Assembly: GCF_003334765.1 (NCBI RefSeq)
Contig: NZ_QOWT01000020.1
Reading direction: 5' to 3' (one strand)
From: Escherichia coli
GTDB taxonomy: Bacteria; Pseudomonadota; Gammaproteobacteria; Enterobacterales; Enterobacteriaceae
DNA: 64,000 nt
Shown: positions 19,556 through 59,106 of the stretch, piece by piece
Layout of the letters: each line of letters starts with the position of its first letter
How positions within the stretch are numbered: position 1 is the first letter of the stretch
Translations under genes and position numbers: made by a program
The notes under the pieces: model-generated
Seen by the model: the letters and a program-made list of their open reading frames with translations, nothing else
Told to the model about the DNA's origin: nothing
Database searches by the model: none

Positions 19556-19630
19556 TGGGGTATCGCCAAGCGGTAAGGCACCGGTTTTTGATACCGGCAT
19601 TCCCTGGTTCGAATCCAGGTACCCCAGCCA
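19556..19630 (+). tRNA. glnU: tRNA-Gln (anticodon UUG)
   Basis: TGGGGTATCGCCAAGCGGTAAGGCACCGGTTTTTGATACCGG...ACCCCAGCCA. Confidence 0.95.
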
Positions 19631-19645
19631 TCGAAGAAACAATCT

Positions 19646-19722
19646 GGCTACGTAGCTCAGTTGGTTAGAGCACATCACTCATAATGATGGGGTCACAGGT
19701 TCGAATCCCGTCGTAGCCACCA
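19646..19722 (+). tRNA. metU: tRNA-Met (elongator, anticodon CAU), second copy
   Basis: Identical to the tRNA at 19362..19438. Confidence 0.95.
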
Positions 19723-19769
19723 AATTCTGAATGTGTCGAATATGTTCGGCAAATTCAAAACCAATTTGT

Positions 19770-19844
19770 TGGGGTATCGCCAAGCGGTAAGGCACCGGAT
19801 TCTGATTCCGGCATTCCGAGGTTCGAATCCTCGTACCCCAGCCA
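19770..19844 (+). tRNA. glnV: tRNA-Gln (anticodon CUG)
   Basis: TGGGGTATCGCCAAGCGGTAAGGCACCGGATTCTGATTCCGG...ACCCCAGCCA. Confidence 0.95.
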
Positions 19845-19854
19845 CATTAAAAAA

Positions 19855-56256: not shown

Positions 56257-57050
56257 TCATAATAATTGCGGCGGCGCAAAGCGACGGTTGTTTAAGACGG
56301 GCAGTTGCGCGCGCACCTGACGCACACGTTCGGGCGTCACTTCCGCCATAATGAGTGCAGGCATTTCTGACGCTGCCGCAATGGTGACGCCAAAGGGATC
56401 TATAATCCGGCTTTGACCGATATTTTTGTTCCCGCACTCCCCCGCCGCCACCATATAACAGGTGGTATCCAGCGCACGAGCGGCAAGCAACGTTGACCAG
56501 TGATGCTCTTTGAGCGGCCCGCGAACCCAGGCGGCAGGAAGTACCAGGATTTCAGCTCCCTGTAATGCCTGTGCCAGCGCCAGCTCTGGAAAGCGTAAGT
56601 CATAACAGGTCATCAGACCGACCTTCATCCCTTCCACCTCCAGTAACGGAGCGATTTCATTACCAGCATCAACACGGCGTGATTCCTGAATGGCAAATGC
56701 ATCATAGAGATGCAGTTTGGCATAACGGGCGACGATGTTTCCTGCCTGAAGTGCCACCAGCATATTCCATGCGCGCCCCGGCGTTGAAGGAACATGAATC
56801 GTCAGAATTGTCGTCATCATGTTACGTTTACTTTCTCGCCGTAAAGTCCGAGGAATTCGCCTTCCAGCAGCTGTGCTGATTTAACCGATAGATCTGCATC
56901 ATGATCATCGCGCGCCAGCAATGCTTCCGGCAGGACAAACAGCGATACGTCGTTTTCCGCCGCCTGCGCCATCAACGAGGCACAAATCTCAGCGTTCTTT
57001 TCCCACACAGATGTAACAGCAAACTGTCCTGCGGCAACCAGCATTGCCAC
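56257..57050 (-). pseudogene. ybeM: C-N hydrolase (nitrilase-superfamily) gene ybeM, split by a frameshift
   Basis: Two minus-strand ORFs in different frames overlap by 4 nt (56817..57050, 77 aa; 56257..56820, 187 aa); Lys and Cys candidates (…YAKLHLYD…, …[12 protein letters not shown]…) lie in the downstream piece. Confidence 0.75.
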
Positions 57051-57136: not shown

Positions 57137-57520
57137 GTGTTACAACTTCTTTTAGCAGTTTTTATTGGCGGTGGTACGGGAAGCGTGGCGAGATGGCTGT
57201 TAAGTATGCGATTTAACCCACTGCATCAGGCGATTCCGTTGGGGACGCTGACAGCAAACCTGATTGGGGCATTCATCATAGGAATAGGATTCGCATGGTT
57301 CAGCAGGATGACGAACATTGATCCAGTGTGGAAAGTATTAATCACCACCGGATTTTGTGGCGGTCTAACAACCTTCTCAACATTTTCGGCAGAAGTGGTG
57401 TTTTTGTTACAAGAGGGCCGCTTTGGCTGGGCATTACTGAACGTTTTCGTCAACCTTCTGGGGTCTTTTGCCATGACCGCACTGGCATTCTGGCTGTTTT
57501 TGGCCTCAACCGCACACTAA
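57137..57520 (+). CDS. crcB: fluoride exporter CrcB (Fluc)
   Basis: 127-aa ORF with GTG start, four TM segments, [12 protein letters not shown] motif. Confidence 0.93.
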
Positions 57521-57525
57521 AGACC

Positions 57526-57555
57526 AAAAAAAACCCGCTGATTAAGCGGGTTTTG
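57526..57555. terminator. bidirectional intrinsic terminator between crcB and cspE
   Basis: AAAAAAAACCCGCTGATTAAGCGGGTTTTG. Confidence 0.8.
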
Positions 57556-57573
57556 AATTCTTGCTGACGTATC

Positions 57574-57783
57574 TTACAGAGCGATTACGTTTGCAGCAGA
57601 AGGGCCTTTGGCACCGTTAGTGATTTCGAACTCTACGCGCTGACCTTCAGCAAGAGTTTTAAAACCATTAGTCTGGATTGCAGAGAAGTGTACGAACACG
57701 TCTTTGCTGCCGTCTTCCGGAGTAATGAAACCGAATCCTTTGGACTCATTAAACCACTTAACGTTACCTTTAATCTTAGACAT
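57574..57783 (-). CDS. cspE: cold-shock-domain protein CspE
   Basis: ORF 57574..57813; internal start [20 protein letters not shown] gives 69 aa. Confidence 0.95.
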
Positions 57784-57957
57784 CAAAATTACCTTTACAT
57801 GAAAAATAGACACAAATGCTGTGTCGGTTACCAGTACACCAATTGTGGTACGCTTTGTCCAGTGTAACTTTACTAAAAAGTGATAAAAGTCGCGTTATTT
57901 TTGATGTTACTTATTTTAGCTATTGATTTTAAAGAAGTTACTAAAACTTCATTTGTC

Positions 57958-58518
57958 TCAAAACTGAAAGCGCATCCAGGCAAAGTACACATTGCCATTG
58001 TTGTAGGTACCCGGAATGTAGGTCATCTGAAAAGTCACTGGGCCATAACCCACGGAGGCCAATGGCAGTAGAACCGGGAGAGGGATGTAATTCCAGTTAT
58101 CGCGTGCCGTTACGCCAGCGGTGAATCCCAGACCTAAATGAAAATTTTCATCCGCCAGCGGTCGCCAGGTACTTTCCCATCCGTATCCGGCAATCGGTTC
58201 CCATTTGTTCCACGAGTCCTTAAATGCCATGGCATACAGGCCATGCCAGTTTCCTTTTTCATCCCAACGCGACAGGCCAAAACCGCCACCCCACGGTCGC
58301 TCGTTATAGCGATCGGTTTTTTCTTTGTCGTAAGCGAAACGTGCATGCCAGGTGATGGCAGGAATATATAAATCATAATGTTCAGGCTGTTGCCAGGTTT
58401 GTGCAATATTTTCTCTAAACGTTGTCATCCACTCATCTGCGTTAGCAAAAACTTTACCAACGCTGATTAACTGAATAAAAACAAAGGAAAAGATAGCGAC
58501 ATATTTACTCACGTTCAT
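57958..58518 (-). CDS. pagP: lipid A palmitoyltransferase PagP (CrcA)
   Basis: ORF 57958..58542; internal start [25 protein letters not shown] (signal peptide) gives 186 aa. Confidence 0.93.
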
Positions 58519-59003
58519 TTGTGACCATAAAACATTTATCAAAAATCTACTACTAGCATAGCAAAGCTACAATTAACATAACCTTAATAGACCCAACATA
58601 AAGAATAATCTGAATAGCTGCTCTATTTATTTCCGCTTGTTCAAGTTAAATATTTCCGCGCATCGATTAAAGATGATGCGTCGTTTTCTGCGATGGGAAT
58701 AGTCAAAAAAGAAAAACCAAGTCTTTTTTGATGACAAAATGCAATCAAGGAAAAATTATTTTATTTTTTAACGAGATACAACAATCATCTTAACGAAGTA
58801 TATAATATATATCGTCAACCTATGCTCATATTAGATTATTTTTTGAGCGCACAGCCGCAGCTAACACCATTGCAATTAACAAATTTGCATCAATCCACCA
58901 TCAATTTGCACACATTATTATGTGATAATTGCCAACCGCTAAATATGCGTTTTGTTATCTATGTATAAAAACAGCAACTTCAATGTCTTAATGGCAGTTT
59001 TTA

Positions 59004-59017
59004 TTGATTTTAATCAG
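59004..59017. promoter_or_regulatory. FNR-type site about 90-100 bp upstream of dcuC
   Basis: TTGAT-TTTA-ATCAG matches TTGAT-N4-ATCAA at 9 of 10 positions; dcuC is reported as anaerobically induced. Confidence 0.4.
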
Positions 59018-59106
59018 CATTCATCGCCAATTTATTGGGCATATTTTTTCCTTAAGCTTTAGGAATTTTTTATTATTTACTTTGGGGCCTGGAGACAGGA
59101 AAAATT

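Follow-up and report, generated by a model that had tools for sequence, protein, structure and literature searches.

The 588-bp interval between pagP and dcuC is best explained, at a probability that we put at about 90%, as the known divergent control region of these two genes: two separate σ70 promoters lie about 500 bp apart at its ends, with an H-NS-bound, AT-rich spacer between them. Occupancy of the region by FNR, σ70, and H-NS, as well as regulator-dependent expression of the genes, has been shown in the literature, and the comparison presented here shows that the motifs and their spacing are conserved across genera. The exact start sites, a −41.5 geometry of FNR at dcuC, and the PhoP box in use at pagP are what we infer on this basis.

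The window analysed, 64,000 nucleotides in total, is a K-12-like segment of the Escherichia coli chromosome in reversed orientation with respect to MG1655. Positions 58519..59106 are exactly the gap between the start codons of pagP (58518, minus strand) and dcuC (59107, plus strand), and the coordinates, gene identities, and divergent layout given in a preliminary description of this DNA proved exact. The gene pagP (crcA), encoding the lipid A palmitoyltransferase, occupies 57958..58518 on the minus strand, and its product, read from the annotated ATG, does not differ from that of MG1655 (100% identity); dcuC, encoding the anaerobic C4-dicarboxylate transporter, occupies 59107..60492 on the plus strand according to its open reading frame and the MG1655 records, which place dcuC at 654,583–655,968 (−) and pagP at 656,557–657,117 (+). 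Of the 5,426 complete E. coli genomes, 5,423 gave a match to a 1.4-kb query around the gap, flanked by annotated pagP and dcuC. The window aligns colinearly with MG1655 (99.96% identity), save for the absence of the IS5D copy that MG1655 carries between gltI and lnt (window ~27224..27228) and a difference of one unit in the Gln/Met tRNA repeat cluster (~19556..19848), from which we conclude that the strain is K-12-like but not MG1655. With regard to mobile elements, the pagP/dcuC gap is a reported, recurrent target of IS5 insertion in E. coli lines evolved towards resistance to kanamycin (PMC6307192), and one complete genome in our similarity search carries an IS5-family element in pagP.

The composition of the interval (58519..59106) is in keeping with H-NS-silenced DNA. 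Its GC content is 31.3%, compared with 50.1% for the whole window, whose minimum falls here; only 0.1% of all 588-bp windows are equally AT-rich. It contains twelve runs of A or T of at least 5 nt, including runs of 5–6 at 58705, 58712, 58724, 58751, and 58764. The preliminary description had called the region strongly AT-rich with A/T tracts and one of the longest non-coding stretches; both hold, as it is the lowest-GC 588-bp stretch, with the tracts at 58751 and 58764 among its runs, and by the MG1655 annotation no other unannotated gap in the 64 kb is as long (the next longest are about 380–480 bp). The further suggestion that such DNA is typically bound by nucleoid proteins is borne out by published data. 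H-NS ChIP-chip regions at 654,590–655,558 and 655,584–656,283 correspond to window positions 58740..59708 and 58015..58714, and together take in both promoters and all of the gap but some 25 bp near 58715..58739 (PMC3688515 Table S3); genomic SELEX also marked the spacer as an H-NS site (PMC3946193), and deletion of hns raised pagP expression 18-fold (PMC4147861). In other genera the gap spans only 281–470 bp overall (281–307 bp in Klebsiella and Raoultella, ~400 bp in Salmonella, and ~460 bp in Citrobacter), indicating that most of the E. coli centre is dispensable there.

At the dcuC end, the near-consensus FNR site noticed previously, TTGATTTTAATCAG (59004..59017, plus strand), fits TTGAT-N4-ATCAA at nine of ten positions. 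A motif scan recovers this site, but the frequency of matches is at chance level: five sequences in the window match with at most one mismatch, when 3.1 are expected. Likewise, the several CATCAA/TTGAT half-sites remarked on in the gap are present, although their number (six TTGAT/ATCAA half-sites vs 3.1 expected, P about 0.1) is not significant. What supports the site, given that the motif match alone is at chance level, is where it lies, how well it is conserved, and the ChIP evidence in the literature. Myers et al (2013; PMC3688515, Table S6) list as bound the motif CTGATTAAAATCAA at 655,281 (U00096.2), which corresponds to window positions 59017..59004 and is thus the identical site, and their FNR ChIP-seq summit at 655,298 maps to ~59000, within 10 bp of it. 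The same study classed dcuC as directly activated by FNR, with raised σ70 occupancy and expression; dcuC was ~20-fold up anaerobically and appeared on the Δfnr RNA-seq list (PMC3688515).

For the comparative analysis we used 80 dcuC loci of Enterobacteriaceae, one genome per species, from about 20 genera including Escherichia, Citrobacter, Salmonella, Klebsiella, Raoultella, Enterobacter, Lelliottia, Leclercia, Buttiauxella, Pluralibacter, and Mangrovibacter. The pattern TTGAT-N4-[AG]TCA[GT] was kept in 79 of them, about 70–165 bp before the ATG, with half-sites that were 97% identical across loci and an N4 spacer that varied. The last base of the site was the non-consensus G (ATCAG) in 74 of the 80 loci and T in the other five that keep it. 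At exactly 22 nt after the FNR site, a hexamer CA[CTG]ATT was found in 78 of the 80 loci. Identity was 0.97 in the half-sites and 0.95 in this −10 block, compared with 0.61 between them and 0.49–0.56 in the flanks. The only position in the gap at which our sequence differs from MG1655 is 59003 (A here, C in MG1655); it flanks the left FNR half-site and is polymorphic for A and C at the same position across genera. Could the palindrome nonetheless be a functionless chance match? AT-rich DNA does favour such motifs, and the scan found them at chance frequency. However, half-sites conserved over about 20 genera with a varying spacer and a fixed distance to the −10, together with the published ChIP-seq occupancy and FNR-dependent expression (PMC3688515), leave this reading practically no credence, and we regard it as effectively refuted already. 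The assignment of the site to dcuC control is supported, as the same 14-mer is listed as bound in vivo and the site is kept in 79 of 80 loci.

Given the fixed 22-nt spacing, we predict the dcuC −10 element to be CATATT at 59040..59045 on the plus strand (CACATT in most genera), which is preceded by a conserved GG. If transcription starts 7 nt past the hexamer, the start would lie near 59052, and the 22-nt distance would then place the centre of the FNR site at about −41.5, which is class II geometry. The σ70 ChIP-seq peak at 655,235 (window ~59063; PMC3688515) is compatible with this predicted start. A Shine–Dalgarno sequence, AGGA, can be read at 59097..59100 (plus strand), 6 nt before the ATG, and the predicted 55-nt leader showed no unusual structure when its folding was compared with that of shuffled sequences (z = +0.79). 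Class II FNR promoters (PMC3688515) share with this region a TTGAT-N4-ATCAA-type site, the lack of a recognisable −35, and a weak (here predicted) −10 at a fitting distance, as well as the anaerobic, fnr-dependent induction and the in vivo occupancy by FNR and σ70 that are reported for dcuC. The region differs from them in that the −41.5 position at dcuC is deduced from a conserved hexamer and in that a conserved non-consensus G ends the site.

Immediately upstream of the FNR site, a block at 58965..59003, partly conserved across genera, contains an A5 tract, TTAAT, a T5 tract, and the inverted repeat ATAAAAACAGC/GCAGTTTTTAT. It spans about −85 to −49 of the predicted dcuC start and may serve as a contact for the alpha-CTD, in DNA bending, or in the binding of a second factor. 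In addition, dcuC is reportedly repressed by YeiE from a binding site downstream of its promoter (PMC6237786).

A different dcuC promoter has been proposed in the centre of the gap. RNA polymerase holoenzyme genomic SELEX assigned to dcuC a 'constitutive' promoter, ATGACA-17-AATTAT (58731..58759, plus strand; PMC3946193), which is also the sole consensus match of our promoter scan in the gap. If this were the main dcuC promoter, the transcript would have a ~340-nt leader and the FNR site would lie inside it. The remark of Myers et al on dcuC, 'TSS not in peak region' (PMC3688515), speaks in the same direction and implies that a dcuC start annotated elsewhere existed in 2013. Several observations argue against this promoter. 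E. whittamii and Escherichia sp. E1V33 do not keep the hexamer pairing, the closest sister locus lacks the −10, and the gaps of other genera are only 281–470 bp long. The anaerobic σ70 ChIP-seq peaks listed are those at ~59063 and ~58556, with none in the centre (PMC3688515), and the element sits beneath H-NS. Moreover, one promoter-like match is fewer than the 3.9 expected in shuffled sequences, and a central promoter would leave the invariant 22-nt spacing between the FNR site and the hexamer unexplained. We therefore consider it improbable that dcuC is mainly transcribed from the centre, and favour the FNR-proximal promoter. A second σ70-like element, TTAAGA-17-TAAAAA (58765..58793, minus strand), proposed for pagP in the same SELEX study (PMC3946193), lies back to back with the first and overlaps it. 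Neither central element was conserved in sister Escherichia species, and we read both as spurious promoters typical of H-NS-bound AT-rich DNA.

The pagP-strand element also bears on whether the centre encodes a small RNA. Ssr31, predicted in Shigella flexneri 2a 301 (PMC4782007), is a 295-nt candidate on the pagP strand of the orthologous gap for which RT–PCR was scored 'Yes', and the σ70-like element at 58793..58765 proposed by SELEX (PMC3946193) counts in favour of this reading. Against this, an Rfam scan of 57500..59400 at E up to 10 gave nothing credible in the gap (the best match had E = 1.6, so that no family reached E = 1), a scan of the minus strand for intrinsic terminators came back empty, and the fold of 58900..58605 (minus strand) was no better than that of shuffled sequences (z = +0.53). 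The gap centre is the least conserved part within Escherichia, and no start is listed for the pagP strand of the gap by Cappable-seq of cells in aerobic M9 (PMC4782308). While Ssr31 matches the interval and strand, it rests on promoter and terminator prediction plus RT–PCR, which cannot tell a small RNA from read-through or from an upstream pagP transcript; here we found no terminator, stable structure, or conservation to go with it. An sRNA gene in the centre is accordingly very improbable, and the reading as a silenced spacer is preferred.

Other elements of the spacer are described here for completeness. A terminator-like hairpin followed by CGTTTTCTGC (58658..58681, plus strand) is flanked by the direct repeat TATTTCCGC (58628–36 and 58651–59). 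Neither E. whittamii nor Escherichia sp. E1V33 keeps the hairpin, conservation of both repeat and hairpin stops at the closest sister locus, and the hairpin may be fortuitous. Two copies of CATCAAT spaced by 11 bp and the inverted repeat GCAATTAACAAAT/ATGTGATAATTGC occur in a block at 58873..58932 that is conserved within Escherichia. A small protein gene in the gap is not supported, because none of the four open reading frames of 35–48 aa is intact in the Escherichia sister loci, where they have lost the start or acquired stops or frameshifts.

At the opposite end, we predict the pagP −10 to be TATGCT (58555..58560, minus strand), with a start near 58548; a σ70 ChIP-seq peak at 655,742 corresponds to window position 58556 (PMC3688515), whereas aerobic Cappable-seq (PMC4782308) shows no start on this strand of the gap. 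As in other PhoP-activated promoters, a direct repeat lies at or just upstream of the −35 position, here with two overlapping candidates on the minus strand. Box B, TATTAA-GGTTA-TGTTAA (TATTAAGGTTATGTTAA; 58573..58589), is overlapped out of phase by box A, TCTTTA-TGTTG-GGTCTA (TCTTTATGTTGGGTCTA; 58588..58604), which scores better (2 vs 3 mismatches) and is specific to Escherichia. The pattern (T/G)GTTTA-N5-(T/G)GTTTA with three mismatches yields 194 hits in the window and is too permissive alone, so conservation was used instead: a module of GTTAAG-N5-aTTnA, 12 nt, and TAnnnT, to which box B and the −10 belong, was found in 42 of the 47 loci that keep pagP divergent from dcuC. The PhoP-box candidates thus lie within 58573..58604, and the box B module is conserved. 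The centre of box B lies about 32–33 bp from the predicted pagP start, in agreement with the 32 bp reported between the PhoP site and the start of E. coli crcA, compared with 44 bp in Salmonella (PMC2908699). PhoP-P shifts a fragment upstream of pagP, and pagP is down in ΔphoPQ Shigella (PMC5775216). Either box may be the one used in E. coli pagP control.

A close known relative of this promoter is that of Salmonella enterica pagP (PhoP 'architecture IV'; PMC3335776). The orthologous gene is likewise divergent from dcuC and activated by PhoP, and the two promoters have in common tandem PhoP half-sites with 11-bp phasing and the repeat GTTAAG-N5-ATTCAG. The PhoP footprint in Salmonella, however, falls on TGTTTA-N5-TGTTAA, a box shifted upstream by one half-site and separated from the −10 by 23 nt and from the start by about 43–44 bp. 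The module described here is consistent with that footprint, and the 32 bp in the E. coli literature fits the box 12 nt from the −10. The supplements of Kim 2012 are without an E. coli entry for the pagP/dcuC gap. In genomic SELEX with RpoN holoenzyme and NtrC, a peak at 655,760 in the dcuC/pagP spacer corresponds to window ~58538 (PMC8743547); an informal inspection by eye found no convincing σ54 −24/−12 element near this position. Separately, we noticed a tandem imperfect duplication of 20 bp at 58543..58582 (AAATCTACTACTAGCATAGC/AAAGCTACAATTAACATAAC, 75% identity), which takes in the pagP −10 together with the proximal PhoP half-site and yields two promoter-like modules ~16–20 bp apart; this two-copy repeat may be due to chance.

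Some further observations concern pagP itself and its downstream neighbours. The gene appears to be damaged in two loci of the comparative set: in L004 (Escherichia sp. MOD1-EC7003) the product has a 52-residue gap, and in L006 (a species representative labelled E. coli) it is split into three fragments, which suggests pagP decay in some Escherichia lineages. The only real Rfam hit in 57500..59400 is the cspA-type leader of cspE: leader and CDS (57526..57968, minus strand) match the cspA thermoregulator RF01766 with 124 bits, against a gathering score of 78, and at its 5′ end this match reaches into the final codons of pagP (57958..57968). The strongest nearby Cappable-seq start, at 656,590 (U00096.2; score 431; window ~57708, minus strand), maps 75 nt inside the cspE frame, and the starts upstream of cspE are weak (PMC4782308). 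Finally, ybeM corresponds to two overlapping open reading frames (56257..56820 and 56817..57050, minus strand), which the K-12 annotation treats as a frameshifted pseudogene of the deaminated glutathione amidase.

Regarding the factors that relieve silencing of pagP, a gapless search of the gap for the SlyA consensus TTAGCAAGCTAA with up to three mismatches gave no match, and matches in the window were fewer than in shuffled sequences. Upstream of the PhoP box we found a weak element, TCAGATTATTCTTT (58600..58613, minus strand), with four mismatches to a GAATATTC type, which we describe as RcsB-box-like. Elements of the GAATATTC type with at most two mismatches occur upstream of the PhoP box in 8 of 46 loci, compared with 0.35 in shuffled sequences. 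The loci concerned (L019, L020, L025, L043, L050, L053, L064, and L007) belong to Escherichia, Citrobacter, and Enterobacter, the elements sit 25–50 bp ahead of the pagP PhoP box, and the Enterobacter version, TAAGAATATTCCC, is stronger than that of the window. SlyA and RcsB–GadE contribute to pagP activation (PMC4147861, PMC6106083), and the element could be the cis-site for the published RcsB–GadE dependence of pagP (PMC6106083). The region thus resembles H-NS-silenced envelope genes that are counter-silenced by SlyA/PhoP or RcsB, of which E. coli pagP is itself an example, in its AT-rich, H-NS-occupied upstream DNA, its derepression in Δhns, and its activation by SlyA and RcsB–GadE (PMC4147861, PMC6106083); it departs from them in that the gap has no gapless SlyA match and the RcsB-like element is weak in this strain.

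Do the two ends influence each other? The preliminary description had proposed that envelope-stress and anaerobic control may share this region. This stands as far as the common H-NS-bound spacer and a PhoP-controlled pagP are concerned, but it does not extend to FNR. That pagP, too, might be controlled across the shared spacer by FNR or by the dcuC transcription that FNR drives is suggested by its anaerobic behaviour: σ70 at the pagP promoter peak rises from 37 aerobically to 366 anaerobically, and the level of crcA/pagP mRNA increases 3.4-fold under the latter condition (PMC3688515 Tables S2 and S12). However, pagP/crcA/b0622 is missing from the wild-type vs Δfnr tables in which dcuC is present, and FNR occupancy is unchanged in ΔhnsΔstpA (0.87 vs 0.86; PMC3688515). 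The FNR site is about 460 bp from the predicted pagP start, and the core promoters are ~500 bp apart. Furthermore, gadE, hdeA, slp, and gadA also gain σ70 anaerobically in the same table (PMC3688515). Control of pagP by FNR is hence a distinctly improbable reading. As pagP is anaerobically induced yet falls outside the FNR-dependent lists, pagP and dcuC share silenced DNA and not FNR control. Because acid-resistance genes gain σ70 anaerobically, the likeliest cause of the pagP rise would be acidification, acting via EvgAS/PhoPQ and RcsB–GadE, which are known inputs to pagP.

A more speculative idea is that remodelling of the H-NS filament at one end could relieve silencing at the other, triggered either by FNR-driven dcuC transcription in anaerobiosis or by SlyA/RcsB–GadE at pagP; in a smaller variant, the GAATATTC-type element would simply be the RcsB–GadE site. 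We give this idea a small chance of being right. If true, the tenfold anaerobic gain of σ70 at pagP would be an effect of the shared spacer and not of a dedicated pagP regulator.

Taken as two promoters flanking a silenced spacer, the region would work as follows. During anaerobiosis, dimeric [4Fe-4S]-FNR would occupy TTGATTTTAATCAG, about 41.5 bp upstream of the predicted start near 59052, and recruit RNA polymerase in class II style to a weak dcuC promoter with the −10 CATATT and no usable −35. At the other end, phosphorylated PhoP would bind the direct repeats within 58573..58604, overlapping the −35 position of the promoter with the −10 TATGCT, and switch on pagP in low Mg2+, acid, or antimicrobial-peptide stress. 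H-NS would polymerise over the AT-rich spacer and both promoters and keep pagP low, and SlyA and RcsB–GadE would, in line with the literature, counteract it at pagP.

Earlier publications cover both genes and the FNR site, the dependence on PhoP, and the coating by H-NS, and the finding is in this sense already known. What is added here is comparative: conservation supports class II geometry for the dcuC promoter as well as the placement of the PhoP-box/−10 module of pagP. In particular, the invariant 22-nt spacing between the FNR site and the −10 over about 80 enterobacterial species leads to a prediction of the dcuC start near 59052. More broadly, the region is a tidy case of two unrelated stress programmes located at opposite ends of one silenced, AT-rich spacer.
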